A stretch of 32,000 bases of DNA from a cyanobacterium endosymbiont of Epithemia turgida isolate EtSB Lake Yunoko (GTDB lineage Bacteria; Cyanobacteriota; Cyanobacteriia; Cyanobacteriales; Microcystaceae). The stretch covers positions 1,380,001 to 1,412,000 of the forward strand of contig NZ_AP012549.1 of assembly GCF_000829235.1 (NCBI RefSeq), given 5' to 3'. This document shows positions 752 to 31,976 of the stretch, piece after piece; the stretch's first letter is position 1, and each line of letters begins with the position of its first letter. Position numbers and translations under genes: made by a program. The notes beneath the pieces are model-generated. The model did not search any database and was not told the DNA's origin. It was given only the letters and a program-made list of their open reading frames with translations.

Positions 752-782
752 TTTTCTAAAAAAACTTAATTTTTTTAGAAAA
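752..782. repeat. AT-only hairpin: 13-bp arms (ttttctaaaaaaa / tttttttagaaaa) with a 5-nt loop
   Basis: Inverted repeat read directly from the sequence. It lies upstream of the pheA start. The composition is low-complexity, so significance is modest. Confidence 0.6.
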
Positions 783-2129: not shown

Positions 2130-2172
2130 ATACATAAGAAGAGACAAAGTTAAATTATCCCTTCTTATGTAT
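2130..2172 (-). terminator. Hairpin immediately downstream of the rne stop codon: 12-bp stem, 19-nt loop
   Basis: atacataagaag (2130..2141) pairs perfectly with cttcttatgtat (2161..2172), and the rne stop is at 2196..2198. There is no clear U-tract on the minus strand and the loop is large, so terminator function is uncertain. Confidence 0.35.
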
Positions 2173-4178: not shown

Positions 4179-5818
4179 GCAATTCCCTCAAACTTTTGTA
4201 GCCGACTAAAACACTTTATTAAGTCGAGTGCCTGTCGATATAAATTAGTCAAAAAACTGTCTAAATTTAGTTGCAATTGACTTCAAGCCAATGAAGAATC
4301 AAAGAAAATTATACTCACCCTTATCTTTCACCTAAACGTCGGCTATCTAATTAAGCTGATGTAAGTAATTTCGTCTGAGGAGGTTGCTCGTTTTCTGTAT
4401 CTCTACCAATCTTAAAACGAGAATTGTAATTCGATACTTAGTGGACCCCTCTTTGAATAAACTTGTCAGCACCAACATTTATTGCATGTAAGACGCTTCT
4501 TAGGTGAATTGAGTTGATGATAGAACCAACAAGAAACACTTTAACTGTTTCCAGCAGTGAACTAACTAATGATTACAGTCAGCTAAACGGTTAAGTTCTA
4601 TTTGTATTAAATTACTTCAGCTGGTTGAGTGATTTTGGTTTTTTTGGACATTAATCATTCAGGACAATCTACATAAATACTAGATTATTTTAACCCAATT
4701 AAAACCTAGTTAAAAACCTAAAACCATATCATTAGCTCACTTTTAGTTTTTGGATAACGTTAATGTTAACCAATTGTTCCTATTCATATTTTCAGGTTGA
4801 GCAACCAGTGTAAATCATATTTTCTAGAATCCTATATCTTTAGAAGTCAGATGTAACTCTATTTAATAACCCTAAGTAGATTCGTTACCAGCTGCAAGTG
4901 TCATCTTAACATATATATGTCCGTCATTTATTTTTCTCATGTAGACTTGAAAGCTAATGTTCGAAGTACATTGTATAAACTTTTCTGAACTATGATAAGA
5001 GAAACTTGTCCTAAATCGGATTGTAAAAACTCACTTTGATTTGAAGAAAGGAAGAAGGACAGAGATTTTAGAAGGTAAGAGAAAAGGGAAATATGAAAAC
5101 CAGATTATGATATTCTAGTTTGACACAGAGTAAGAGTGTAGACTGGGGGTGAAAAGATCAAAGGGATAATCTTCACTGAACTTTAACTCAATGGTAATCA
5201 CATGCCAAAAAAGGTTAGGTTTTTCCTTTTCCCAACTAGAAGCTAAAACCATTGAGTCAAGAGAGAATTTGTCACACCAAGTCTATATAATTTATTTTTG
5301 ATCAAAAATTACGGATAAAAGACTCTTTATTTTTAATAAATAAACCGTGGAGTCAACAGAAGTAAATCAAAGTAGAGAACTGAAAACAGATTTTAACTGG
5401 TTAGTTTTTGACAATACTAATAGTCATTCCACTTTCTTCTGTAAAGAAAGTAGGAGTCATGAACAGGATGTATTTTATTAATTAAACCCTGCGTTATGTC
5501 TAAAGATTCTGATCCATTTCCTTTCGATATATCATTTTCCACATTTATATTAGCTTTAATTGAGATAGCACTTATCCCAATTTTTTGCACTCTAATATAT
5601 TGTTAGTTCATCCTTAAGAAAAATTGTAGTTATAAATTATTATCTTTCAGAAATATTCATGCATTTTTACTAAGTCTTAAAGTTCTTAAAGTCATTGATA
5701 TACAAATATCTTCTCAATTTTTTCTCCTAACTGTTCCTTGTTCTCGATTCATAACTATCAGTCTACTATCCTAAGTTAACTAGCACTGTATATAACCTAA
5801 ACTATTACTAACGCAAGC

Positions 5819-7089
5819 ATAAACAATAACTCTTTACTTATTGGGAAAGGACTTCCCCCAGTTCATAAAGTTTGGACTGATCAAATAGTTCTGGTTATAA
5901 CTGAATTAATTGAAAACTTAGATTTTTAATTAACTAACCTAGAAACTAATGTCACTCACATTTCGGAAGGATTGGTAGAACCTTTAACAGAAATTGAAGA
6001 ATGGTTAAGATGAAGTCGGGAAATTGTCGAGCATTTAGTGTCAGTTAACAATAGTCAAGAATTGCGGAAGGATTATTAATAATCTTAACCTTATATTGTT
6101 CACTTTATCAATAAAATCAACCAAAGTCAATTCTTGTATAAGGCATTTAAAGCCCTACAAAAGAGTGAAGTATGGAATACCCTAGGATCTGCCCAGAAGC
6201 GTATTGTTGAGATAGCTATCCGTGAAGCAGAATTCGCTGGTGTAGGGGTAGAAGGAGAAAACCGAGGTAGAAGGAGAAAAACGAGAACGATTTAATCAAA
6301 TTTAATTAGAATTAGTAGAACTTTCTACTAAGTTTTCTAACAATGTTTTTGATGCAAACAAAGTATTCAGACTGAAATTAAAAACAAAAAAATAAGTTGA
6401 TGGTTTACCCTCTAGTTTGCTAAGTTTAGCTGCTAAAAACACTGGGATATTAGTTTTTAGACAGAAAAACAACGGAAAATGAAGGTTTATTTAACTGCTG
6501 AAAAATTGCGCCTTTATTTTCCTTTAATTCAAGTATTAGAGGGCTTATTTACTTTAGCATAACGTATCTTCCAGGTAACCATAACTCTTGCTGATGGTCA
6601 AGCCTCTAGATGGCATAAAGATGTTCGTTATTTTCAGGTTAACAATGAATTAGGAGAAACAATTACCTATTTTTATTTTGACCTCTATATAAAAGTCGTT
6701 CACTAGAAAACCGGGAAGGGGCTTGGATGAAAAATTGTATTGTCCGTCCGGGCAAAAATCAAACCAGACAAAGGATTTTATACTCGTTTACTTGTCCGCT
6801 TATCTTATTTGTAATCAAACCCCTCCTGTGGGAAAAGAACCTAGTTTGATGACCTTTGATGAAATCACTATTTTGTTCTATAAATTCGGTTACGGACTTC
6901 AATATATGTTAACCAAAGTAGATTATCCAGGGGCATCAGGCATTAATAATGTTGAATGGGATGCCGTAGAATTACTTAGTTAATTTATGGAAAATTGGTG
7001 TTATTATCGCTATAATTTATTTGACTTATCTAAACATAATAAACCCAATGAAAAAGATACTCTCTTTCAAGTACATGATCGAGGTTTAT
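5819..7089 (+). pseudogene. prlC: Oligopeptidase A (M3 metallopeptidase) pseudogene: start codon lost, multiple stops and frameshifts, internal and C-terminal deletions, HExxH destroyed
   Basis: Hand translation across shifting frames matches my recollection of E. coli PrlC in colinear order: NSLLIGKGLPPVHKVW..., LVEPLTEIEEWL, LYKAFKALQKSEVWNTLGSAQKRIVEIAIREAEFAGVG, ELSTKFSNNVFDA, KLRLYFP..VLEGLF, WHKDVRYFQV, FYFDLY, then track ORF 6723..6983 with [57 protein letters not shown], then FMENWC. The expected HEFGHG reads YKFGYG. The expected ATG reads ATA at 5819..5821. Confidence 0.8.
6247..6284 (+). repeat. 19-bp tandem duplication inside the prlC pseudogene
   Basis: ggtagaaggagaaaaccga is followed directly by ggtagaaggagaaaaacga, with one mismatch. 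The unit length is not a multiple of 3, so the duplication shifts the frame. Confidence 0.85.
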
Positions 7090-7090
7090 A

Positions 7091-7123
7091 AAAAAATGGC
7101 AATTTACCCATTGCCATTTTTTT
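7091..7123. terminator. Bidirectional intrinsic-terminator-like hairpin (aaaaaatggcaat / ttaccc / attgccatttttt)
   Basis: Perfect 13-bp inverted repeat with a 6-nt loop. It has an A-run on the left and a T-run on the right, so it has stem plus U-tract in both orientations. It sits at the truncated 3' end of the prlC pseudogene. Confidence 0.6.
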
Positions 7124-7353
7124 ATGTAATTTTTGTCATATCTTTTCAGGAACCTATGCGACAGGGTACTAAAGTTATAAATGGGCATAAGTATTAATAG
7201 TGTTCCTTGTTCTTTACCTAAAAAAATAATTAAAGAATAAAAAAATTGATAAATATCTAATTTATTGTAAAATACAAGAAGTAAAAAAGAGATTAAAAAT
7301 GTTCTAATATCTGGGGCTATTTATTATGACATCCGAAAATTTTTTTTTAGGGG

Positions 7354-7383
7354 TTGACAAATGCTGGTTGATTTAGTTATATT
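7354..7383 (+). promoter_or_regulatory. Sigma-70-type promoter for tRNA-Asp
   Basis: Consensus TTGACA at 7354..7359, an 18-nt spacer, then TATATT at 7378..7383. The tRNA 5' end is at 7403. Confidence 0.55.
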
Positions 7384-7402
7384 TATGGACGGCTTAGAGA
7401 AT

Positions 7403-7476
7403 GGGACTGTAGTTCAACTGGTTAGAGCACCGCCCTGTCACGGCGGAAGTTGCGGGTTCGAACCCCGTCAGTCCCG
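7403..7476 (+). tRNA. trnD: tRNA-Asp (anticodon GUC), 74 nt, CCA not encoded
   Basis: Manual cloverleaf: acceptor GGGACTG/CAGTCCC, D stem GTTC/GAGC, anticodon stem CCGCC/GGCGG with loop CTGTCAC, T stem GCGGG/CCCGT with loop TTCGAAC, discriminator G. Confidence 0.95.
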
Positions 7477-9290
7477 TGTAAATAGAACTAACTTAAAGAA
7501 ACCTATTAGCAAGTTGACAATTCATTGTCGCCTCTAGGTACACACTTGAGGGGCGAGATTCTTACCCACGAATTACGCGAGTGTATAGCGTAGGTTTTCC
7601 TAGCTCTTAATTAAGACTTTACTGCTTCAGTAGTCTTTTCTAAATAGAAAATGTTGCCATTTATTTGCTCTTGTTCGGACACTTCACTCGGTTAGTACTA
7701 AAGATTATCTATTGCCTATAATTTATATATATTATTTTAAACTACCAGAAAGACTGTTTTGAGATTCTTAAGATTGTTGATTATTTGACACAACTCAAGG
7801 ATACTCGTACCCGCTGACTAGAGTAGCTAGGTTTGCCTATTTATTTTAGCCTTTTACTGGGGGTAGTATTGACTATCCTATGTTAGCCAGCCTAGCTTTA
7901 TGGTTAAGTGCTTACTCTGCTTTAATTTCAATGCTAAAACATTTTGGATACTCCCTAGAATTTGATGTATTTTACTTATTGTATAGCAATTTCCCAGATG
8001 GGAGCTAGTTTCATTTAAGTCTTAATCATCTTTGCAAAATAAAATCAAAGGACATCGTTTTCTAAATGCTTTTCAGCACTTTAACTTTCTCGAATTAGTT
8101 TTAATAAATGATTGTCTAATTTTTTTTCGATATCTGTAAACTTTTAGTGACTAGTATTGATATAATCCTTATTATATCAAAAAAATAAAGTTTTTTTCAA
8201 GAAAACTAATTATTTACTCTCGCATAATTTGAACAAAGACATTAAGTAAAAACTTCTAAAAATATCAGTTAAAAATATTTTTCTTTATTTTAGAATAGCT
8301 ATCTTCTTTTTTGTTTATTGTATTTATAATTCGAGAGAAACTTATATTATCTAATATAGCTAATCAATGAACTTAAGTTAACATCTATAATAAGTTATTT
8401 AATGACTGTCTTGTCAATACCTAAGGCTTTGTTTAAATAAAAAATTTACTTTATTTAAAGTTATTGAATAAATCAACAGGTTAATAAGTTATTCTCAACC
8501 ATAAGCAATTAATATTATCATGAATAAATTTTTAAATCTCTTGGATAAAAAATTATTGCCTGAATATTGTGATTTATGAAAACATATAAACATAGAGCTA
8601 TAAATGATACTCAGCTATTGATTTGCTCATAAGAGTTACAATACCTCTCCTTCATCCTATTAGTTTTCTGCTTTTTATTTTTGATAATAGCTTTATGTTT
8701 TTAGACACCTTGTATTTAAGTTCATCTGTCAGTACATAATTCTTAGTACATAGGATAGTCAATCAAATTCCATACCATAAACCCAAAATTCTTTTCTGGA
8801 AGACACAATATTTTTATCTTCTCATAGCAACATAGTTTTCTGTGTTGTTAAAACAGGTTGATCCACTGATTCTGGCTACCAACTAACTTTATTATCTGAT
8901 ACTCTACTTAATAGTGTTAGAAGGATAGAAGATGCCACCGACTTATCAGTAAGTTTGAGTTTCGCAGTTATTGATTATAACAACACCTACAAAAAATCTG
9001 AAGCTACTTAGACTGTTTTAGTTTTCAATAATTTTGTTCAATTTTAAAAAATATGACTACAGTTTTCAACTCTTTAACTATTCCTAGTTTAGGAGAGGTT
9101 TTAGCTTTTATTTATAACTTCTAAGAGTAAATTGTTAAGAGCTAAATTTAATAATAAAAATAATTAAAGATTATATTTATTATTTATATTTACTTGTAAA
9201 AAATTAATTATGATTTTAATGATTTAGTATAATTTTCACTCAGTAAAATTATTGAATAAACAAATTTTTTGTACTATCAAAAAATAAAAA

Positions 9291-9896
9291 CTATCTAAAA
9301 AATTTATTTTTTAGATAGTAGTCAATTTGCTGATATAGTATATCTGGAGTCAAAGAATTATCAAGGACAACATTAGCTAAAGCAATTTTTTCTTCTAAGG
9401 ACATCTGACTTTCTATTCTTTGTATAGCCTGGTTTTTAGTCATTTTATTATTTTTTATAAGTCGTTTAATTTGTTTTTCATAAGAACAATGAACAACCCA
9501 AATTTCTGTGACTAGACTGGTTAATTGAGCTTCAAAAAGTAGAGGAATAGATAAAATCATTATTGAAGATTTTAATAGACTTATTTCTTTCTTAAACTTA
9601 TTTATGATAAAAGGATGAATTTTACTTTCTAACCACTGTCTTTCTTCGGAATTATTAAATATAATATCTCCTAATATCTGACGATTTAATTGTCCATCGG
9701 GTAACTGAACCAGTTGTCCATAGCGAATAAAAATTTCTTGCAAGGTAGAAGAATTGGCTTTAACAGCTTCTCTAGCATAAATATCAGCGTCTAAAATAGG
9801 AATTTTATAAATCTTATTAATGTAATTAGAAACCGTAGTTTTTCCGGTAGCAATTCCTCCGGTTAACCCAATAATTATTTGTGACTTCGTACTCAT
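9291..9896 (-). CDS. coaE: Dephospho-CoA kinase
   Basis: 201-aa ORF with the N-terminal P-loop IIGLTGGIATGKTTV and typical CoaE length and layout. Confidence 0.88.
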   Translation of the reverse strand: MSTKSQIIIGLTGGIATGKTTVSNYINKIYKIPILDADIYAREAVKANSSTLQEIFIRYGQLVQLPDGQLNRQILGDIIFNNSEERQWLESKIHPFIINKFKKEISLLKSSIMILSIPLLFEAQLTSLVTEIWVVHCSYEKQIKRLIKNNKMTKNQAIQRIESQMSLEEKIALANVVLDNSLTPDILYQQIDYYLKNKFFR

Positions 9897-11784: not shown

Positions 11785-11838
11785 CAACTTATCCTTGTTA
11801 AGGACTTATTAGGTAAAGTCTTTAACAAGGATAAGTTG
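11785..11838. repeat. Long hairpin: 21-bp arms (one mismatch) with a 12-nt loop
   Basis: caacttatccttgttaaggac (11785..11805) pairs with gtctttaacaaggataagttg (11818..11838). It lies about 100 nt downstream of the desulfurase stop codon. Confidence 0.75.
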
Positions 11839-15815: not shown

Positions 15816-16157
15816 ACAAATTTAATTTTTCTAGAATTATACCTGTGAGTCATCCTAAGGCAAAACTTAGCAGGTGTCCATTATTCTTGAGTGGAATGAT
15901 GTAGACTTTTATTTGATAATTGGAGATCCTGTAGGCAATATTATTACTCAAGATAATAGTACTAATGCAGATGTCTATTGTACATTGTTGCGGTGATTCC
16001 AACAGCAAAAAACGCATATTTTAATTTTTATATTGAATATTCCAAGGTCCAAGCGATTATTCATGATAGTAATCCCGATCTTTCTACAACTTGTGTGTTC
16101 ACTAGTATTATTGAAGGGGATTGTTGTTTTTGGGTTAAATCTCTTCTGAGCAGATAA
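15812..16157 (+). pseudogene. Candidate decayed gene translationally coupled to folD (ATGA overlap); at least 2 frameshifts, family unknown
   Basis: The ATG at 15812 overlaps the folD TGA. Three protein-like open stretches follow in shifting frames: [21 protein letters not shown] / VSIILEWNDVDFYLIIGDPVGNIITQDNSTNADVYCTLL / AVIPTAKNAYFNFYIEYSKVQAIIHDSNPDLSTTCVFTSIIEGDCCFWVKSLLSR*. The last ends at a TAA (16155..16157) inside the first arm of the 27-bp palindrome. I recognised no homolog. Confidence 0.3.
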
Positions 16158-16192
16158 TTTTCTTTAAAATTATCTGCTCAGAAGAGATTTAA
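16135..16192. repeat. Perfect 27-bp-stem palindrome with a 4-nt loop
   Basis: ttaaatctcttctgagcagataatttt, loop cttt, aaaattatctgctcagaagagatttaa. Checked base by base with no mismatch. Confidence 0.95.
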
Positions 16193-16596: not shown

Positions 16597-19500
16597 ATGA
16601 ACCATAGACAAGAATGGCAAAATAGCGGTGTTGACGAACAATTGATTAACCTCAATGTAACAGCCTTAGAGGGGACTTCCCCTTTAGAGTACTTGTTTTA
16701 TTCTGACGCACTTCCTAGACGTAATGATGGTCGGGTTAATAATTCCATGTTAAGACGCTATAAACATACAGAACGAGGAGGTTGGTGGTGTTCAGGGGTA
16801 GATCTCTTGACAGGTGGCGAGGATTTATGGGGGTGTTTTAAACCCAATTCCCCTCGCACGAGTCATGATGAGCACAAGTTGATCAAGTACGAGCATCCCC
16901 CTAAAACATCAGCGGGGGTTTTTGCCTTGCGGGTTCCATTACATCTGTGGCGACAATTAGCCCAACGCTATCACCAGGATATTACTCCAGAAGAGATTAA
17001 TAATCAACTCCCAGATTTAGGTTTTTGGCAATGGGTGATAAATCATCCTTCGATTCCCGTTTGTATTACTGAAGGGGCTAAAAAAGCAGGGGCGTTGTTA
17101 ACAGCAGGATATGTTGCGATCGCTCTTCCAGGAATTAATAGTGGCTATCGAACTCCTCGAGATAAGTTAGGTAACCGAATCGGAAAGTCTCGTCTCATTC
17201 CCCAGCTCGGAAAAATAGCGATTTCAGGAAGAAAAATTTATATTGCTTTTGATCAAGATAATAAACCAAGTTCGATTAAAGAGGTGAATTATGCTATTAG
17301 AAAATTGGGAAGTTTATTCACTCAAGCAGGATGTCAAGTTAACATTATTGTTTGGCTACCGAAATGGGGAAAAGGAGTAGATGATTTTTTAACTCATAAA
17401 GGACTAAAAACTTTTAATAAAGCTTACGAACAGGCATTATCTCTAGAAACTTGGAAAGCACAAAGTTTAAGACAATTAACATATCCTTCTGATGTTGAAG
17501 TCAGTACTCGATATTTAGGAGATTTACTAATTCCTCCAGCTGCTAAATTAGTAGGAATAAAATCTCCAATAGGAACTGGAAAAACTAAGACTCTTGAAAA
17601 GATTGTTGAACAGGCAATCACTTGTCAACAAAAGATATTAGTAATTGGTCATCGAGTTAAGTTGGTTGAGCAACTTTGTCAACGATTTAAAATTCCTTAT
17701 TTAACAGAAATTCAAAAAAATAATGGTAAAATTTTAAAAGGATGTGGACTTTGTATTGATTCTCTTCATCCTAATTCTTTATCTAATTTTAATCCTAGTG
17801 ATTGGACAGGTAGTCTAATTATTATCGATGAAGTAGAACAGGTTTTATGGCATGGATTAAATTCAAATACTTGTAAACAAAATAGGGTTTCTATTCTAAG
17901 ATCTTTTAAAAACCTACTTGAACAAAGTTTAGAATTTCAGGGAAGAGTAGTTATTGCTGATGCAGACTTAAGTGATATTTCTCTTGACTATTTAATTTCT
18001 TTGATGGGAATTAAATTAAACCCGTTCATTGTAGTCAACAATTGGAAATCTAACGATAAAGAAACATGGGGAGTATATAATTATACGGAAACTACTCCCC
18101 GAGAATGGCTCAAGGATTTAGTGCAACATATTCAGCAAGGGGGTAAACCTTTTGTTTGTCTATCCGCTCAGAAATTAACTAGTAAGTGGGGAACACAAAC
18201 CCTAGAATTATACTTAAAAAAGCGATTCCCAGAAGTGAGAAGCCTAAGGATTGATTCTGAATCATTAACTGACCCTAATCATGACGCTTATCAATCTATC
18301 AACCACCTTAATAAAATTCTATTAAATTACGATATTATTTTGGCTAGTCCTTCCATTGAGACAGGAGTCAGTATCGATATCAAAGATCATTTTACCTCTG
18401 TTTGGGGATTAGCTCAAGGGATACAAACTGCTACTTCTGTATGTCAATCACTAGGAAGAATTCGTGATAACATTCCTCGTTATATTTGGTGTGCTTCCTA
18501 TGGGTTTAATAAAGTAGGAAATGGTTCTACTTCAATTCCCAATTTGTTAACTGCTGGTAATCGTGTTACTCAGTTAAATATTAAGTTGTTACAACAATCT
18601 GACTTAACAGCTTTAGATGATATAGATATAGAATTTCAAGCGGAATCTTTACTTTGTTGGGCAAAAATGGCGGTTCGCGTTAATGTTTCAATGATTCATT
18701 ATCGAGAGTCAATATTAAGAAATATTACTGATCAAAATCATCCAATTCTTCGCAAGAAGAAACTAGTCACTATTCAAGATATCAAAAAATGTAAAAAATA
18801 TTCGTATAATAGTAAAAATTCTTGTCAATTAATAAAAGCAATTGAAAGTGTTAGAGAACAAAATTATCAAGAAGAATGTGTAATGGTTTCCCAAGGCAAA
18901 GAGATTACTGATAAACAATATCAAGCGTTAAATAAGAGGTTAGTTAAAACTGTAGTTGAACGGCATAGCATCAAAAAATATAATTTACAAAGACGCTATT
19001 GTATTGAGATAACTCCTCAATTAGTTGCCTTAGATGATGAAGGATGGTATGACAAGATACGTTTACATTATTTTTTAACTTTAGGACGTTCTTATTTAGC
19101 AGATAGAGACACTATTCTTGCGAAGAAATTCATAGAAAAAGGACAGGGTAGCCTTTTCCTGCCTGATTTTAATAGTTCTCAATTAGGAGTAATTATTGGA
19201 ACAATGGAGGTGTTGGGAATGCCGGTGTTACTCATGAACCATGAGCGAAAGTTAAAGCCTACAGATAAAGACTTGCAAGCGATGGCAAGAATTGCTATTA
19301 AAAACCGCGCTGAAATCAAGACTATTATGAAAATTGGTATTGCTAAAAATTCTAGTCCTATTACGATCATACGGCGTTTGTTGAATAAGATCGGCTACGG
19401 ATTAACTTGTATTGGTTCTCAAAAAGTTAATAAAAAGCGAGTGCGAGTGTATCAAGTTGTTCTTCCTGATGATGCTAGGCAAAAGGTATTTAGACAATGG

Positions 19501-19638
19501 TGGATAAGAGATGGAAAATTACCAGGTAGTTCTGAACCTTGGTTTGAAGAATATACAAATATTAAGTCAGAAATGACTAAAATTCAACATCAGCAGGAAA
19601 AAAACAAAAATTATATCCAATTAAGTTTAGAATTTTAA
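16597..19638 (+). CDS. Primase-helicase replication protein of the CyRepA1 type: DUF3854/Toprim-like N-terminal half, P-loop helicase-like ATPase, ~300-aa C-terminal domain of unknown function
   Basis: 1013-aa ORF. The N-terminus EWQNSGVDEQLINLNV is typical of DUF3854 proteins. Toprim-like acidic residues: ITEG (E159, 17071..17073) and FDQD (D219/D221, 17251..17259). Walker A GTGKT at 17572..17586, Walker B IIIDEVE with D411 at 17827, then SPSIETGVSI and QSLGRIRD helicase-like motifs. AAGGGA lies 3 nt upstream of the ATG. Confidence 0.8.
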   Translation: MNHRQEWQNSGVDEQLINLNVTALEGTSPLEYLFYSDALPRRNDGRVNNSMLRRYKHTERGGWWCSGVDLLTGGEDLWGCFKPNSPRTSHDEHKLIKYEHPPKTSAGVFALRVPLHLWRQLAQRYHQDITPEEINNQLPDLGFWQWVINHPSIPVCITEGAKKAGALLTAGYVAIALPGINSGYRTPRDKLGNRIGKSRLIPQLGKIAISGRKIYIAFDQDNKPSSIKEVNYAIRKLGSLFTQAGCQVNIIVWLPKWGKGVDDFLTHKGLKTFNKAYEQALSLETWKAQSLRQLTYPSDVEVSTRYLGDLLIPPAAKLVGIKSPIGTGKTKTLEKIVEQAITCQQKILVIGHRVKLVEQLCQRFKIPYLTEIQKNNGKILKGCGLCIDSLHPNSLSNFNPSDWTGSLIIIDEVEQVLWHGLNSNTCKQNRVSILRSFKNLLEQSLEFQGRVVIADADLSDISLDYLISLMGIKLNPFIVVNNWKSNDKETWGVYNYTETTPREWLKDLVQHIQQGGKPFVCLSAQKLTSKWGTQTLELYLKKRFPEVRSLRIDSESLTDPNHDAYQSINHLNKILLNYDIILASPSIETGVSIDIKDHFTSVWGLAQGIQTATSVCQSLGRIRDNIPRYIWCASYGFNKVGNGSTSIPNLLTAGNRVTQLNIKLLQQSDLTALDDIDIEFQAESLLCWAKMAVRVNVSMIHYRESILRNITDQNHPILRKKKLVTIQDIKKCKKYSYNSKNSCQLIKAIESVREQNYQEECVMVSQGKEITDKQYQALNKRLVKTVVERHSIKKYNLQRRYCIEITPQLVALDDEGWYDKIRLHYFLTLGRSYLADRDTILAKKFIEKGQGSLFLPDFNSSQLGVIIGTMEVLGMPVLLMNHERKLKPTDKDLQAMARIAIKNRAEIKTIMKIGIAKNSSPITIIRRLLNKIGYGLTCIGSQKVNKKRVRVYQVVLPDDARQKVFRQWWIRDGKLPGSSEPWFEEYTNIKSEMTKIQHQQEKNKNYIQLSLEF

Positions 19639-19991: not shown

Positions 19992-21344
19992 TTAACGCAT
20001 GGTCACAAATTCTTCAGCAGAACTTGGATGAATACCCACGGTAGCATCAAAATCAGCCTTTTTAGCTCCCATTTTTACGGCAATAGCTATTCCTTGAATA
20101 ATTTCGGCAGCATGATCTCCTACCATATGTGCGCCCAAAATCTGATCACTTTCTTGATGAACAACAAGTTTCATCAAAGTTTTTTCCTTTGTGTCAGGCA
20201 ATACATAATACATTGGACGAAACTCGCTACTATATACTCTGATAGCATTTTTTCCATATTGTTCTTTAGCTTTTGCTTCAGTTAGTCCTACTGTGGCAGC
20301 TTCTGGAGTACTAAACACGGCAGATGGGACATTTTCATAACTCATCAGACACGATTTACCTCCAAATTTGGTGTCAGCGAAAGCGCGGCCTTCACTAATA
20401 GCGACAGGAGTGAGATTAATACGATCTGTACAGTCTCCGACTGCATATATATTCTGTTCGGCGGTTTGACTATACTTATCGACAACGATTACTCCATTGT
20501 GTACTTTAACCTCTGTATTTTCTAATCCTAAGTTTTCTAAGTTAGGGATACGCCCAGTAGCAGCCAATCCAATGGTATCAGCTAATACCATGTCATTATT
20601 GCTATCTCCTTCCAGAGAAATTGTTAAACCTTGGTTTGTCTTTTTGACTTCAGAGATGGAACAGTTTTTTAGGATGCGAATACCATGTTCTTCCATAGAC
20701 TCTTGGATGATGGTTCGGATATCTTCATCAAACCCTTTCAGTATTTTATCGCTGCGAATAATTTGGATGACATCTGACCCTAGTCCATGCATAATACAGG
20801 CAAATTCTACCCCAATGTAACCCCCTCCCCAAATGACGACGCGTTGGGGTTGTTCGGGTAGTTCAAACATAGCATCAGAGGTCACTAAATATTCTTTTCC
20901 TGGAATATTAGGTTTGATGGGACGTCCCCCTACAGCAATTAAAACTTTATCAGTGGTAACTTTGGTATTTTCCACTTCTACGGTGTGGGGGTCGAGTAAT
21001 TTACCATGGGCACGATACAGTTGAACATTGGACTTATCCAACATCTTTTGATAAATACCATTGAGACGACCAACTTCCTTATCGATAGCGGCCATCATTT
21101 TAGGCCAGTCGAGGATACTTTTAGCCGGACTCCATCCATATCCTTGGGACTCTTCCAAGACTCTAGGGAAATGAGAAGTATAAACCATTAATTTTTTGGG
21201 AATACATCCTCTATTAACACAGGTTCCCCCTAGACGATTAAATTCTGCTAAACCGACTCGAGCTCCATATTCGGCAGCGCGTCTAGCAGTGGCAATTCCT
21301 CCTGAACCACCACCAATAACGAATAAATCAAAATTAAAACTCAT
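19992..21344 (-). CDS. gor: Glutathione-disulfide reductase
   Basis: 450-aa ORF with FAD-binding GGGSGG, the redox-active GGTCVNRGCIPKK, NADPH-binding GGGYIGVEFA, and the C-terminal HPSSAEEFVTMR typical of GR rather than lipoamide dehydrogenase. Confidence 0.9.
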   Translation of the reverse strand: MSFNFDLFVIGGGSGGIATARRAAEYGARVGLAEFNRLGGTCVNRGCIPKKLMVYTSHFPRVLEESQGYGWSPAKSILDWPKMMAAIDKEVGRLNGIYQKMLDKSNVQLYRAHGKLLDPHTVEVENTKVTTDKVLIAVGGRPIKPNIPGKEYLVTSDAMFELPEQPQRVVIWGGGYIGVEFACIMHGLGSDVIQIIRSDKILKGFDEDIRTIIQESMEEHGIRILKNCSISEVKKTNQGLTISLEGDSNNDMVLADTIGLAATGRIPNLENLGLENTEVKVHNGVIVVDKYSQTAEQNIYAVGDCTDRINLTPVAISEGRAFADTKFGGKSCLMSYENVPSAVFSTPEAATVGLTEAKAKEQYGKNAIRVYSSEFRPMYYVLPDTKEKTLMKLVVHQESDQILGAHMVGDHAAEIIQGIAIAVKMGAKKADFDATVGIHPSSAEEFVTMR

Positions 21345-21592
21345 ATTTTTACTAAATCTCCTAAATTTTAGGTTTAAACTTTGATCTTGTACTTTTTAGC
21401 CCTATCTTTTATCTTAAGATAATTGGTTATTTAAACACAATGAATGATTACCTCTCATTACATATTAAACCTTATTTATAAGTTTCTCTAACTCCTGGAA
21501 ATATGGTTACTTTTTTATCTGATTTAAACTCTGCAACAAATAATAACTATACTTCCTAAGTATACCTTGTTCTCAGATAGCTAAAATCAATA

Positions 21593-21634
21593 ATTTTCTG
21601 AGGTTTAATCTATCGAATAAACCTCAGAAAATTT
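21593..21634. repeat. Perfect hairpin: 16-bp arms with a 10-nt loop
   Basis: aattttctgaggttta (21593..21608) and taaacctcagaaaatt (21619..21634). Confidence 0.9.
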
Positions 21635-21825
21635 ACACTATTTAAACAAAAATAAACTTAGGTGATTATCGTGAACAATTTTTATACAAACTTTGGACCA
21701 TGGAGAGAGTTTATATGGGTTATAAACGTAAGAATATTTTAATTTTTTGTTCTATATTAAAATACCAATAATAACAATAGTTTTATTGAAATTTAGTTGA
21801 TAATTTTGTTTTAAAATTTAAATTT

Positions 21826-21887
21826 ATATTAAACTTAGAACTTCCTTCTTTTAAAATTTTAAAAGAAGGAAGTTCTAAGTTTAATAT
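21826..21887. repeat. Perfect 62-bp palindrome: 31-bp arms, no spacer
   Basis: atattaaacttagaacttccttcttttaaaa | ttttaaaagaaggaagttctaagtttaatat, with the centre between 21856 and 21857. Checked base by base. The first mismatch is at 21825/21888. Confidence 0.95.
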
Positions 21888-22305
21888 TTGATAATCATAA
21901 AATCAATTTAATTTAAACCCAGCAAAAGTTTAATTAAAATACTTTATAGGTTAATAATTTAATCCTTAATGAGAATATATATTTTCTAATATCAACAAAA
22001 TTATAGTTATTTAACTTATAATTAGCCTTTTAAATAACAGCTAAATAATAGTAGATTAACCATAAAAAAACAACGTTATAAACAAATATTTTTTCTTGAA
22101 TTAAAGTACAATAATATTTTACTTGAACTGTTTTACTCATTAAATATAATTGACATATTAACTTAATAATTGTTACTATTAATATTTATTTTTTAATTAT
22201 ATTTATAACCAAACCTATAAATGATAACTGCAATATAATCTAAAAAATATAGTTGAATTAATCACAGAGACTAATAATGTCTATTCCAAAATCATTTCAA
22301 TTTAC

Positions 22306-22352
22306 TTTTAAAGCTTATATTCCTAAATAATTTAGGAATATAAGCTTTAAAA
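22306..22352. repeat. Perfect palindrome: 23-bp arms around a single central base
   Basis: ttttaaagcttatattcctaaat, centre a (22329), atttaggaatataagctttaaaa. Checked base by base. Confidence 0.95.
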
Positions 22353-22907
22353 ACTACTATAATCTGATTAATACTTAATCCTTATTCTTGTTAAGAAGAC
22401 GATGATTGATGGTGGGTTATTCCGTCATAATTTAGTTACTAGAGAAATATTGGTTACCGTTTTAAAGTTAATACCTAAGACATTAAAAATAGAAACTTAT
22501 CGTTAATTTTTAGCTTTAGGGATGGTCAATAGAACTCTTAAAAAGAGTTTTTAAAATATAGTCATTTAAGTTATTTTTTAAAGTAAAATAAAGGCAATAT
22601 CTAGTATTTCTACATTTTCAGGCTATCTAATTATTTCTAGTTATTCCCCTTTAACCATTTAGCTATTAGCTTTAATATAAACCCCTCAGAAGCTACTGTG
22701 CAAGAAACTAGAAAAGAAGTTTATGAGAGTACTTTTTGAATTAGTCAAATTATTTAAAGATGTTAATCTACAGAATGTATGATATCACACTTTAAGATTT
22801 TGTACTGCACAAAAAACATAAAATTACTACATTAGGAGCAGTTTAAATTATCTAATAAAAGAATAAGTTTTAATGAACAAGAGCTAATAATTCATTAGTA
22901 ACTTTAA

Positions 22908-23522
22908 TTATTTCATAGCTGCTAATAAAGCAATAAGAGCATTATTTTCGTAGGAATTAATTTCTTGATCCAACCAAGCAATCCTTACCGCAAGGGGAAA
23001 GACACTCGCCGCTACATCGGGGTCAAGTTTTTTCAATAATTCTGATGATTGAGGAACCTTCAAAGCAGATTTGATACTAATCAAAATAGATTGATCTAAC
23101 TTAAGGGGGGAAAGCTGAGTTTCTACCTCATGCCAGTCAATCTTACCCTTGGGAATTCCTACTTGGATTAAATAAGCCAGTAATCTAGACAGTTGCAATT
23201 GTTGTCCATCATTCATGTGGCTATAATTACCATCAGTAGGGCTACTAATTTTAGAGTGTGATCGCCCAATCTGCATTTCTGATGATCGCAGATTTTTAAG
23301 AATTTGTTGCCAGTCTTTAGCATCACATAAATCAGGTTTAGCTACTGTCAGACAAACATGAATGCGTTCAGCATGAGGAGAAAGTTGAGTCACCCTCGCC
23401 CGAACCCCAAGGTAACTTAACCAACGAGTAATGGTGTCAACTAGAGTCGCTTGGGTAGCTTGAGAATTTGCTAACAAACGGATTTGGGTTTGAACTAGGG
23501 GGCGAACAATTTGGGAGAGCAT
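22908..23522 (-). CDS. Hypothetical protein; the C-terminal half has a TerB/DjlA-N-like helical flavour (uncertain)
   Basis: 204-aa ORF with normal amino-acid composition in an otherwise ORF-free AT-rich neighbourhood. I recognised no diagnostic motif. Confidence 0.55.
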   Translation of the reverse strand: MLSQIVRPLVQTQIRLLANSQATQATLVDTITRWLSYLGVRARVTQLSPHAERIHVCLTVAKPDLCDAKDWQQILKNLRSSEMQIGRSHSKISSPTDGNYSHMNDGQQLQLSRLLAYLIQVGIPKGKIDWHEVETQLSPLKLDQSILISIKSALKVPQSSELLKKLDPDVAASVFPLAVRIAWLDQEINSYENNALIALLAAMK

Positions 23523-26789: not shown

Positions 26790-28035
26790 TTTCTCTTTAC
26801 CTAAATTAAACAAAATCCATGAGCCTCCACTAATTAAAAATCGGGAGTCAGGCTCTGCCTGTAGTCAAGGATGTTTTAGTTTTGACAGTTAATCTTAAGG
26901 TGATTAATTGTAATTAGGGATAATATTCACTTCTACGGATTTAGATTCCTCATATAAACGTTTTTGGCTTTTCTCTATTAAGGCGCACAAAGTTGACAGC
27001 TAGGTAAAATAAGACCTTTAACTTTTTTTATTATAACTTTATTACAGTTAAGCTAGAAAAGTAACAATTTATTCTCGGTTTATGCTGCCAATTTTTTACT
27101 TTTAGTTAGCATTGACCCTAAGTGCATTTTACAAAAATAACTCCTAACAACTCTTTGAAATCTCTAATTTTTAACGATAACAGCTCTTATTCTTAATTTT
27201 TATACTAATATTCACTAATAAATAATATTTTCTTTTTTATTATTTTTATAATAAAAGCTCTTAGCTAAAATTATAAACAGTTTATGGAGCGCGGAATGGG
27301 AGACTAATTAATGATTACTAGTACCAATCAACAACAAAGCCAAATTGTAGTTAGGGAGAGTTTAGTATTAAAATCGAGACATTACAACTATTAAGTATTT
27401 GGATATATACACGAGGTAAATTCTAAGTATACTTTTTCTGGCAAAACTTATCTGGAATCAAAAGGGAAAAATATAATATAAACATTTATTTGCTTTTCTC
27501 AAGCTCAACATGAGTGTTGACAAGGCACAAAAATTTTCTAATTTGGGGTGATTCAAGAAAAATTTTAATTCTAGTCTAGTCTGGGAGTTATCCTCCAATT
27601 TTCTGTTACGAATGAACTTAGTATAGGTATCTGCTTCAATATCTAAAAGGATTTCTTATTATTTTTCTATAGCGAACTATTCAATTAAAAGGTATTCCCG
27701 CCAGATTTTTTTAATGTCTTCTTTGAAATCTTGTAATTGTTATTTAATTATTTTCTTTTTAGAATAATAAAAATTTTGTTATCAAATAGTAATATTTTTT
27801 GTTTTATAGGATAGCATGAAACTATTATTAGCGCTTTTTAATTATTCATTAAATTATTAATCTTAAAAACACAAAAGTAAATAAAACTACTCCAAATATG
27901 GCATCAATATTTTTGATATTTTAGGTAAAAAAATAGATATGCTTAATTACGACATAATGGAATATACGCTTATAAAATAACTTAAATAAATTAGTTTTTT
28001 TCTTTACTTTTAAAGGTGTTTTTCGTTGAAATTGG

Positions 28036-28052
28036 CTAGGGTAAAAACCCTA
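28036..28052. repeat. 17-nt mini-hairpin motif ctagggtaaaaacccta, copy 2
   Basis: Exact copy of 24292..24308. A looser relative, tagggaaaaccca, lies at 19933..19945. Confidence 0.8.
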
Positions 28053-29051
28053 AATTTTTCCAGTATATGGGAGTAATTTTAATAATGAGGTTTTAATTAA
28101 AACTATATTATTATCTTACCCATTAAATAAAAAGTGATTACAAGGGTTTATGATTATTCGGGAGTTAAATTTTATAAAATAATTCTAAATACCACAACAA
28201 TTAATCCAATTAATCTAATTATTCTGTCATTAAATGGGTGCCATAGGTAGAAAATAAAGTTAGAGATTGTTATTCTGAGAGAACATCAAATTATTTAGTA
28301 AGACACTACATACTAAAAATATACTAAAGAATTAAATTTAATCTCGATTTCCGTAAAAAAACAGAAACTTATAAGGGAGAGAAAAATATTCGTTTTCAAT
28401 AGACACCTAAGTAATAATAAAAAAAGGGATGACCACTACCCTATTAAATAATACTTTTTACTAACTTTTAAGTCTCGAAACAGATGCCAAAAACTAAACT
28501 CTACTAATAAAGTAATTATAAGAGATCAAGTAATAAATTTAATAAAAGTTAAGGAGAGCTAGTCATCGAAATGATAATTATATTACAACTACAATACAAA
28601 GAACAAGAAGAAAATAATTGATTGTGAACTTAAGTTAACGAAATATTTCAAGCTACTTCAAAGTAAAAGAGGTGAGAGAGAAATTTCCAGGATCGCCTCT
28701 ACGGAAAACCTGACTGAATGGGCATCTATAAAAACTAAAGTTAATCCAACAATGATAAAACTAAGGAAAGAATACATGAAGATTCGACGAATCCAAGAAA
28801 TAATACAAGAGATAGTCGCCGTACTAAGAGAAGTATATAAGACTATTAAGAACTTCTTAGGATTAGTTTTTATTATTACATCAACTGTAGATTATAAACC
28901 TATTATCTTATTTCCAATTGCTGAATATATGAGATTGCTTTAGGTTAATAATTATTCCAATGACTAAATGAATCAAGAGTTAAGTAATCTTTTTATAAGC
29001 TAGTTTAAAATAGTTAGGTAAGTCAATGCTACAACTACTGATAACGTACTA

Positions 29052-31176: not shown

Positions 31177-31742
31177 TAGCAAACAACTTTTGTGGGTTTT
31201 TTAAAAATTTAATTAACCAACTTTTCCAGAATTTTTATTCAAAGATTAGGTTAGAAGGCAAATAAGAAACTCGATTAATTTGCCAAAGAAGTAATTACAA
31301 ATCTTATAGCAGACAAATACTATATCATTTATTTAATATTTCTGGTATATGCCATCATTATATTGATAATTGTTTAAAAAATCTGTATACTCTAAAAATT
31401 AATACGCTCTATTAGACGTAAATTAAAGTAATTTTGTATAAACTTAATTTTAAAATATTTCTCGTTGAGTGTTGTACTAAATAAAATGTATTTATAAATT
31501 TCAAAAAAGGTAAAAATGAAAGAAATAATTACTTTATTTTCTAAATAAATTAGACTAAAAAATTTACTATTTATATTTAAAAAAATAAATATAGTCATCT
31601 TTTATGATGCTAGCTAAGTACATATTAATTGGTTTTATTCTAAAATAATTAAAAGAAAAATAGTTATATATTTCTTATTTGTACTCTCTAACTAAATAGA
31701 ATAAAAGAAAATAGTCTGAAATTAAAGATTATAAAAATTACG

Positions 31743-31976
31743 AAGTAATTTTTATAAATAAATATGATTTGGCTAAGATAGTTAAATAAAGTAATTTTTA
31801 TAAATAAATATGATTTGGCTAAGATAGTTAAATAAAGTAATTTTTATAAATAAATATGATTTGGCTAAGATAGTTAAATAAAGTAATTTTTATAAATAAA
31901 TATGATTTGGCTAAGATAGTTAAATAAAGTAATTTTTATAAATAAATATGATTTGGCTAAGATAGTTAAATAAAGT
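31743..31976. repeat. Perfect tandem repeat: 46-bp unit x 5.1 copies
   Basis: The unit aagtaatttttataaataaatatgatttggctaagatagttaaata starts at 31743, 31789, 31835, 31881 and 31927. All five copies are identical, and the array decays after 31976. The 13 nt to the left (31729..31741) are the reverse complement of the unit positions 3..15 (31745..31757), which forms a boundary hairpin. Confidence 0.95.

Follow-up and report, generated by a model that had tools for sequence, protein, structure and literature searches.

Why do three long perfect palindromes, here named P1, P2 and P3, lie within less than 800 bp of one another in the genome of a cyanobacterial endosymbiont, and are they traces of a mutational process or elements kept for a function? 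The question was raised by a first-pass annotation of 32,000 nucleotides from the endosymbiont of the diatom Epithemia turgida (G000:C1:1380001-1412000), and this whole stretch is referred to as the window throughout. The genome is a single contig of 2,794,318 bp with 33.4% GC. The gene content of the window is cyanobacterial, and the only Rfam match in it is a tRNA-Asp gene. In this study, the palindromes of the window were compared with the hairpins of the entire genome and with 180-400 kb each from four sister genomes (G003, G001, G006 and G004) and two free-living congeners (G002 and G007).

Structure of the palindromes

All three palindromes announced by the first-pass annotation were recovered in the window (Table 1), P2 and P3 exactly where they had been placed and P1 shifted by one base, at 21592..21633 and not at 21593..21634. 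An inverted-repeat search of the window gave arms for P2 that overlap each other and are 100% complementary (21826-21858/21855-21887), arms of 23 nt that are likewise 100% complementary for P3 (22306-22328/22330-22352), and arms of 19 nt with 95% complementarity for P1 (21592-21610/21615-21633), within which the genome-wide census described below located a perfect 16-nt stem (21592-21607/21618-21633). Folded as single-stranded DNA, P1, P2 and P3 reach -15, -27.1 and -19.3 kcal/mol, respectively; against dinucleotide shuffles, the corresponding z-scores are -8.8, -13.2 and -9.4, and none of 200 shuffles is as stable. The 62-bp sequence of P2 occurs a single time among 151 cyanobacterial genomes.

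Table 1. Positions of the palindromes, of the gene remains that hold them and of further hairpins in the window
Feature	Position	Strand	Remarks
Pyridine nucleotide-disulphide oxidoreductase (450 aa), intact	19992..21344	-	start faces the dacB remains
Remains of a dacB-type D-Ala-D-Ala carboxypeptidase gene (PBP4, Peptidase_S13)	21345..22907	+	identified by congener synteny and tblastn
P1	21592..21633	.	16-nt perfect arms (19 nt at 95%); this genome only
P2	21826..21887	.	spacer-less 62-bp perfect palindrome, 31-nt arms; this genome only
P3	22306..22352	.	23-nt arms, 1-nt centre; this genome only
204-aa ORF, no Pfam match, intact	22908..23522	-	stop faces the dacB remains
Hairpin, 13-nt arms	752..782	.	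made in this lineage; 24-bp deletion relative to sisters
Hairpin directly 3' of RNase E/G gene	2130..2172	.	kept in all sisters
Perfect hairpin, 16-nt arms	7088..7125	.	lineage-only extension of a 5-6-bp hairpin kept in four sisters
Hairpin, 23-nt arms	11785..11838	.	right arm rewritten relative to G003, adjoining a deletion of about 640 bp
Hairpin, 27-nt perfect arms	16135..16192	.	different, unrelated 26-nt-arm palindrome at this site in G003
Hairpin, 13-nt arms	31729..31757	.	ancestral quasi-palindrome perfected independently here and in G006

Remains of a dacB gene under the palindromes

The spacer that holds the three palindromes (21345-22907) is 1563 bp long and has 22.2% GC, and thus it is as AT-rich as first described; the supposed gene desert, however, consists of the remains of a dacB gene. 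In the free-living congeners G002 and G007, the same two neighbours enclose an intact gene of 519 and 501 aa, respectively, which lies on the strand opposite to them and the product of which matches PF02113 (E 2e-99), and a tblastn search with the G002 protein found a match at 21404-22659 of the window that covers aa 6-488 (E 1.5e-19). The decayed fragments carry 13-14 stops each, and every one of the genus's five reduced genomes has dacB in this dead form only. As judged from sequence comparison, P1, P2 and P3 all fall within the former dacB reading frame, at about codons 68-81, 145-167 and 372-385, respectively, and they lie 250-1080 bp from the ends of live genes.

This position bears on the proposal that such hairpins are functional and maintained by selection, whether as bidirectional terminators, as stabilisers of RNA 3' ends, or as cruciform or nucleoid-protein sites. 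Among P1-P3, only P2 fits a loose version of the terminator pattern, which it does on both strands, with 5-6 G-C pairs of 20 and the tail TTTAATATTT. Because they lie inside the former dacB frame, P1-P3 cannot be terminators left behind by the lost gene, and with the nearest live stop codon (22908) 555 bp away from P3, a terminator role was rejected for all three.

Polarity of the arms

The dacB remains were aligned with those of the four sisters and with the intact genes of the outgroups G002 and G007. Such an alignment had been recommended in the first-pass annotation, and it makes P1-P3 lineage-specific, since none of the three is present in G003, G001, G006 or G004. P1 has kept its left arm in nearly ancestral form, and its right arm was overwritten with the reverse complement of the left; G003, G001, G002 and G007 have non-palindromic sequence at this site, and P1 contains 11 differences private to this genome. 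In P2 it is the right arm that is ancestral, the left having been rewritten in place of about 38-44 nt of unrelated ancestral sequence. The ancestral arm, AAAGAAGGAAGTTCTAAGTTTAA, can be aligned with GGAAAAGGCGATCCGAGTTTAACG, where the intact gene has its codons 160-167 (GKGDPSLT), and goes back to GGAAAAGGCGATCCGAGTTTAAC, the stretch that specifies GKGDPSLT where the gene is still live. P3 is a mosaic, with its outer left arm copied from the right and its inner right arm copied from the left; G006 has exactly the same outer right arm, ATATAAGCTTTAAAA, and G003 shares the inner left arm TCCTAAA, and this change of direction within one stem requires at least two events.

The non-ancestral arm of each palindrome matches only the reverse complement of the ancestral arm. 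Private differences were counted at 23 of 90 informative sites within the palindromes vs 110 of 918 outside (p = 3e-4), and thus they are about twice as dense inside. The dacB remains of G001 have perfect palindromes of their own, different from those described here.

A genome-wide population of one-off hairpins

Perfect hairpins with loops of up to 10 nt were counted over the entire genome and compared with five dinucleotide-preserving shuffles within 300-bp blocks, by which local AT-richness is retained. This census with a shuffled control, called for in the first-pass annotation, yielded 554 hairpins with arms of at least 12 nt against 8-14 per shuffle, and 411 with arms of at least 14 nt against 0-3 per shuffle, the longest arm measuring 34 nt. 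Together with the fold z-scores, the shuffles bear out the early impression that perfect repeats of this size are unlikely to arise by chance. At an arm length of 20 nt, 167 stems are perfect, 106 have one mismatch and 128 have two, compared with none, none and at most one in the shuffles. The abundance of stems with one to three mismatches indicates that decayed hairpin copies exist too.

The 411 hairpins with arms of at least 14 nt fall into 367 similarity components, and the larger components are few and linked by A/T runs only. The hairpins therefore form no repeat family, as had been proposed on the ground that the arms in the window are unrelated and do not represent one family of MITEs. 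REP/RAYT and IS200/IS605 systems typically involve repeats in the form of hairpins, and by their shape alone the palindromes might pass for footprints of mobile elements, either as MITE/REP-like hairpins or as products of hairpin-forming transposon excision. Against this stand the lack of a family and the orthology of one palindrome arm to resident dacB sequence, which means that nothing was inserted. Consistently, no match to the Y1 transposase of RAYT/IS200 type (PF01797) was found in the genome, and according to a preprint, spheroid-body genomes contain no transposases (10.64898/2026.03.19.712447). With sequences that are unique and no Y1 transposase, we rejected the mobile-element reading, which now appears next to negligible.

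The first-pass annotation had also raised the question of where the hairpins lie relative to genes. A preference for intergenic DNA was found, with 391 of the 411 hairpins (95%) outside the long ORFs that cover 53% of the genome, but an association with gene 3' ends was not: genome-wide, the distance from a hairpin to the nearest gene 3' end equals that of random non-ORF positions, and hairpin density in divergent spacers equals that in convergent spacers. Of 41 lineage-specific hairpins, only 2 are no more than 100 bp away from the end of an ORF. The mean GC content of the hairpins is about 21%.

Seen against this population, the cluster as such has no special status, and it is the population that constitutes the actual feature. 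Three palindromes within 800 bp are real, as first noticed, but their proximity is close to chance and unremarkable: clusters of at least three hairpins per 800 bp number 10 in the genome vs 6.1 +/- 2.6 after random placement in non-ORF DNA, and the cluster was accordingly rejected as a hotspot. Hairpin pairs show a mild excess (79 observed vs 60.7 +/- 6.5 expected), which goes with a preference of hairpins for lower local GC (25.4% vs 28.6%).

Turnover and direction of change among sister genomes

At 1.2-1.6 Mb of the genome there are 63 palindromes with arms of at least 14 nt, 49 of which could be aligned to the corresponding site of one or more sisters. In 41 of these 49 (about 84%), a perfect stem of at least 60% of the arm length was present in none of the sisters, and at least one of the eight "shared" palindromes (16135-16192) is a different palindrome at that site in G003. 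The reverse comparison gave the same picture, as only 2 of 30, 5 of 25 and 4 of 32 hairpins of the sisters are matched by a comparable stem in this genome and at most one hairpin per sister has a counterpart sharing its arm sequence.

In P1-P3 and 41 further cases, derived sequence is the reverse complement of adjacent ancestral sequence. Several changes are especially informative. At genome position 1484181, a conserved hairpin of 10-11 bp has grown to 26 bp through the insertion of 8 nt that form an exact complement of the opposite arm, and arms of 28 nt have been rewritten in a single block at 1434428 and 1289670. All six further hairpins that the first-pass annotation listed in the window were found (Table 1), two of which are of this informative kind. 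The stem-loop at 2130-2172 is wholly inverted between G000/G003 and G001/G006, with the loop AGTTAAA in one pair and TTTAACT in the other, and at 31729-31757 the left arm was kept in this genome and the right arm in G006. Templated insertion, block rewrites, stem-loop inversion and perfection in opposite directions lie outside what point mutation can bring about.

Single clear copied tracts are seen in P2, 1434428 and 1574370, and alternating direction in P3 and many others. Since the direction of rewriting often alternates along a stem, many stems appear to have grown stepwise from sloppy inverted repeats. In the 41 lineage-specific stems, 438 pairs are ancestral on both sides, 290 are derived on one side and 72 are derived on both. 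The one-sided derived pairs (36% by lenient parsimony) are not far above the flank divergence of 18.7% per site, and thus the case rests on the direction of change and on the block events, not on the number of changes. No significant asymmetry was found in the choice of the rewritten arm (right arm ancestral in 17 cases vs left in 11), and cumulative GC skew was too noisy to delimit replichores.

It has to be considered whether the arms were homogenised by mismatch correction in an extruded hairpin or cruciform, that is, by short-patch intramolecular gene conversion without polymerase switching. Short-patch repair in either direction yields mosaics naturally, such as the change of direction within the single stems of P3 and 1279951, and mutS and mutL are intact in this genome. 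Such correction, however, cannot create an arm of 27-31 nt where there was no ancestral complementarity (P2, 1434428), nor can it add the 8 templated bases at 1484181 or flip the whole stem-loop at 2130-2172. De novo arms, templated insertion and stem-loop inversion need synthesis with the other arm as template, and mismatch correction as the sole process is therefore unlikely.

A minority of hairpins, exemplified by 1311810 and 2130-2172, are conserved with compensated arms, which suggests that selection acts on some of them. The sequence pattern at 2130-2172, next to the stop of the RNase E/G gene, is that of a hairpin that is probably functional. Compensatory arm changes of this kind, seen also in 10 of 29 hairpins of the UCYN-A-like genomes discussed below, and the loose terminator pattern of P2 favour a functional reading of the hairpins. 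Yet P1-P3 are absent from the four sisters and sit within a dead ORF far from live gene ends, and for the population as a whole the same reading is contradicted by the lack of 3'-end enrichment, the equal density in divergent spacers, the near-complete turnover among sisters and the low GC content of the stems. Function fits only a minority of the hairpins, e.g. 2130-2172 and 1311810, and selection for function is quite an improbable explanation of the palindromes studied here.

Hairpins in endosymbionts and free-living relatives

In the five reduced genomes of the genus, hairpins with arms of at least 16 nt number 25-68 per 220-400 kb, compared with none in 400 kb of G007 and none in 180 kb of G002, the two free-living congeners. 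At the density of the reduced genomes, about 19 hairpins would be expected in the 71 kb of free-living non-ORF DNA (Poisson p = 6e-9), which is, however, more constrained. The genome of the sister G006 measures 3,020,309 bp and that of G007 4,679,413 bp.

Two UCYN-A-like genomes of the same family (G041 and G053) have 31% GC and 81% ORF, and their hairpin density per non-ORF kb is as high as that found here, with arms of up to 41 and 48 nt, respectively. The 10 of 29 UCYN-A-like hairpins that are conserved have fully compensated arms. Over spheroid bodies and UCYN-A-like genomes, two lineages of one cyanobacterial family that underwent reduction independently, long perfect hairpins amount to about 22-42 per 100 kb of non-ORF DNA. 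That compact UCYN-A-like genomes are equally dense suggests that the trait tracks the reduced, AT-rich endosymbiont state and not the amount of junk DNA.

The same comparisons bear on whether the palindromes are artefacts, i.e. chimeras of phi29 whole-genome amplification or assembly errors in the consensus. Chimeras made by phi29 are typically inverted joins, and this genome and those of UCYN-A were, we presume, made from amplified DNA. The sister genome RgSB was likewise assembled from amplified DNA (PMC5638926). Artefacts, however, would not avoid ORFs as 391 of the 411 hairpins do, and they would leave neither the abundant decayed stems with 1-3 mismatches nor the several hairpins that are common to independent assemblies, nor similar densities in all five reduced genomes; moreover, the events are in-place and roughly length-neutral rewrites, not joins of distant sequences. 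At least one published Epithemia endosymbiont genome comes from unamplified Nanopore and Illumina data (PMC11070190), which also counts against an artefact. Given the avoidance of ORFs, the decayed copies, the sharing between assemblies and the similar densities, an artefactual origin is very unlikely.

Repair genes

It had been suggested that SbcCD should make palindromes of this size unstable, and that sbcC, sbcD and recombination genes should be looked for. Full-length, stop-free copies of both sbcC and sbcD are present in each of the genus's eight genomes as well as in three UCYN-A-like ones, and recJ (two copies), mutS, mutL and recQ are intact. The expected instability was overstated, as sbcC and sbcD are intact here and in the sisters and the palindromes do not exceed about 70 bp; with sbcCD intact and no palindrome longer than about 70 bp, there is no paradox with SbcCD. 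The loss of SbcCD was thus rejected as a cause, the two genes being intact in all genomes checked. While xseA is absent from this genome, it is likewise absent from free-living G007, and a PF00929 exonuclease was found in neither lifestyle, apart from a weak match in G002. Loss of recJ, mutS, mutL, recQ, xseA or PF00929 was also rejected, since none of these separates endosymbionts from free-living relatives. The only lifestyle-correlated loss seen concerns two accessory RecQ-family paralogs, missing from both reduced lineages, which is a weak lead because so many genes have been lost in these genomes.

Discussion

The palindromes of the dacB remains are real, unique in sequence, confined to one lineage and placed inside a dead ORF, and in them ancestral arm sequence faces its own reverse complement. 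We consider it likely, on the strength of these comparisons of sequence, that P1-P3 are recent, lineage-specific products of short-range template switching without function, i.e. mutational scars. The first-pass annotation had left a choice between a generating mechanism and a function; the alignments with sisters and outgroups favour the former, and the latter does not hold for this cluster, which consists of dead coding sequence and is absent from the sisters. The switch of the polymerase would be the molecular event behind this footprint, although mismatch correction in a hairpin would leave the same one, and the palindromes presumably serve no function.

The model envisaged is quasi-palindrome correction (Ripley's model) or four-point template-switch mutation. 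During replication or repair synthesis, the nascent strand would for a short time be extended on another template, either the complementary strand or the nascent one, at a distance of some tens of bases, before returning to its place, and a stretch of 10-30 nt would in this way give way to the reverse complement of its neighbour. The outcome would be a perfect hairpin created outright, an existing one lengthened, or mismatches removed. The neutrally decaying dacB remains would provide a setting without selection against hairpins, and the hundreds of one-off hairpins in non-ORF DNA, which makes up roughly 47% of the genome, may owe their origin to the same process. One clean event is insufficient for all stems, as the mosaic ones need at least two switches each or short-patch correction.

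Template switching is known from bacterial quasi-palindromes and has been put forward as both source and keeper of perfect stems (PMC8794818, PMC5941160). The hairpins described here add a new and exceptionally rich case to this known mutational mechanism and do not amount to a novel type of element. Full-text searches found no literature linking spheroid bodies, Epithemia or UCYN-A with palindromes, hairpins or template switching. Within the literature searched, the initial belief that such a feature had not been described thus holds for these endosymbionts, but it does not hold for the mechanism, nor for the enrichment of perfect inverted repeats in bacteria, both of which have been published (PMC5941160, PMC8794818). 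The nearest mechanism is quasi-palindrome mutation as in Ripley's model, studied with E. coli reporters (PMC7202029), together with the four-point model of Loytynoja and co-workers (PMC5453318, PMC8794818), and the one-step perfect stems, multi-base clusters, templated indels and inversions of loops or stems known from these models are all found here. Unlike the published template-switch cases, which concern single reporter hotspots, RNA-gene stems of 2-10 bp and primate mutation clusters, there are hundreds of cases per genome here, with arms of up to 34 nt, and the products lie in neutral endosymbiont pseudogene DNA, many of the stems being multi-event and mosaic.

As in our census, non-coding perfect inverted repeats far above shuffles were found in proteobacteria by Lavi et al. 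in 2018, who described short inverted repeats there as over-represented and preferentially perfected and attributed the excess to template switching, and the excess grows with arm length, to about 150-fold at 13 nt or more in E. coli (PMC5941160). The E. coli inverted repeats analysed, however, all had arms shorter than 20 nt, with a mean of 5.75, and were reported to be conserved across species (PMC5941160). The present genome differs in that perfect arms of 20 nt or more occur in 167 hairpins and that about 84% of the alignable palindromes belong to a single lineage.

Plastids offer a further parallel. Hairpin-associated small inversions and stem-loops in plastid non-coding DNA are said to have been described by Kelchner and Wendel in 1996, and the AT-rich, organelle-like genome and the stem-loop flip between close relatives at 2130-2172 resemble that situation. 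Plastid hairpins are mostly found at gene 3' ends, where they act in RNA processing, whereas P1-P3 lie within dead coding sequence.

Short palindromes are tolerated despite SbcCD. Those of this genome share with SbcCD substrates the form of spacer-less perfect palindromes able to form single-stranded hairpins, but the substrates are an order of magnitude longer, the longest palindrome here being about 70 bp and P2 62 bp, below a scale of about 100 bp; a 246-bp interrupted and a 460-bp perfect palindrome of E. coli are among the substrates described (PMC4245961, PMC3315005). It is possible that SbcCD sets the length ceiling in this genome.

A further and rather doubtful proposal, towards which the comparison per kb of non-ORF DNA leans, is that endosymbionts generate hairpins by template switching at a higher rate per neutral site, instead of merely tolerating them, as a mutational signature of early organelle evolution. 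On that reading, the higher rate could be due to AT-enrichment, or to accessory helicases having been lost, for instance the two RecQ-family paralogs, and some of the hairpins would later be recruited as RNA 3'-end hairpins, in the manner of plastids.

The dacB remains provide a clean natural record of template-switch mutation, in which the intact outgroup genes supply the ancestral sequence codon by codon and the four sister genomes date each palindrome event. With hundreds of events per genome, these endosymbionts make it possible to determine how often an under-counted class of bacterial mutation occurs, how long its tracts are and in which direction it runs. Perfect stems with apparent compensation in these genomes are not by themselves proof of functional RNA structure, and where such mutation clusters occur in pseudogene DNA, they will be misread by aligners and substitution-based clocks. 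Should the difference seen between endosymbionts and their free-living relatives stand, the hairpins would be a new item among the genomic changes that accompany the formation of organelles.

Hairpins and palindromes

Long perfect hairpins of unique sequence were also numerous in two UCYN-A-like endosymbiont genomes of the same family, G041 and G053 (1,443,806 bp and 1,491,611 bp, respectively; both 31% GC and 81% ORF), of which 400 kb each was sampled (G041:C1:100001-500000 and G053:C1:465001-865000). With arms of at least 14 nt, 30 hairpins per 400 kb were identified in G041 and 45 in G053, the longest arms reaching 41 and 48 nt, respectively. Ten of the 29 alignable hairpins were present as hairpins in both genomes with arm differences fully compensated, and the remaining 19 were lineage-specific.

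Among the spheroid bodies, the entire stem-loop beside the RNase E/G gene (Table) was flipped between the Epithemia turgida endosymbiont (G000) and its sister G003 on the one hand and the sisters G001 and G006 on the other, with the arms exchanged; the two pairs differ in loop sequence (AGTTAAA versus TTTAACT). At the G000 palindrome at window 11785-11838, the rewritten right arm adjoins a deletion, G003 carrying about 640 bp extra directly right of this site; the rewriting and the adjacent deletion may represent a single event.

Helicase and exonuclease genes

The free-living congeners G002 and G007 encode two paralogous helicases of the RecQ family, one of about 490-516 aa and one of 710-723 aa, neither of which has a counterpart in G000, G001 or the UCYN-A-like genome G041. 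Spheroid bodies retain an intact main recQ, which G041 lacks. PF00929 (the DnaQ/RNase T-type 3'-5' exonuclease domain) had no match in the whole genomes of G000, G001, G007 and G041; xseA was present only in G002 among the cyanobacterial genomes examined.

Coordinates of features in the window and in free-living congeners
Feature	Location	Strand	Remarks
Hairpin	window 2130-2172		immediately 3' of RNase E/G gene; kept in G000, G003, G001, G006
ORF-poor stretches (ORFs of at least 80 aa)	window 4179-9290, 26790-29051		long; 25-34% GC
Intact 1013-aa ORF	window 16597-19638	+	DUF3854 (E 7e-51) and ResIII helicase segment
RecQ-family paralogs	G002:C75:38835-39866; G002:C17:31578-32618		free-living
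RecQ-family paralogs	G007:C1:4599153-4600235; G007:C1:1605663-1606727		free-living

Gene content and decay

The DUF3854/ResIII architecture is known from plasmid- or phage-type primase-helicases, and this ORF is oddly out of place in a genome reported to be without mobile elements. The ORF-poor stretches, interrupted only by one 86-aa ORF and a tRNA-Asp (7402-7477), are presumably additional gene corpses. Several imperfect AT-rich inverted repeats were observed around window 9128-9328.

Full-length dacB (PBP4) was absent or dead in both endosymbiont lineages, the UCYN-A-like G053, G041 and G027 and all five spheroid-body genomes, whereas a 300-aa paralogous protein was kept in all genomes searched.
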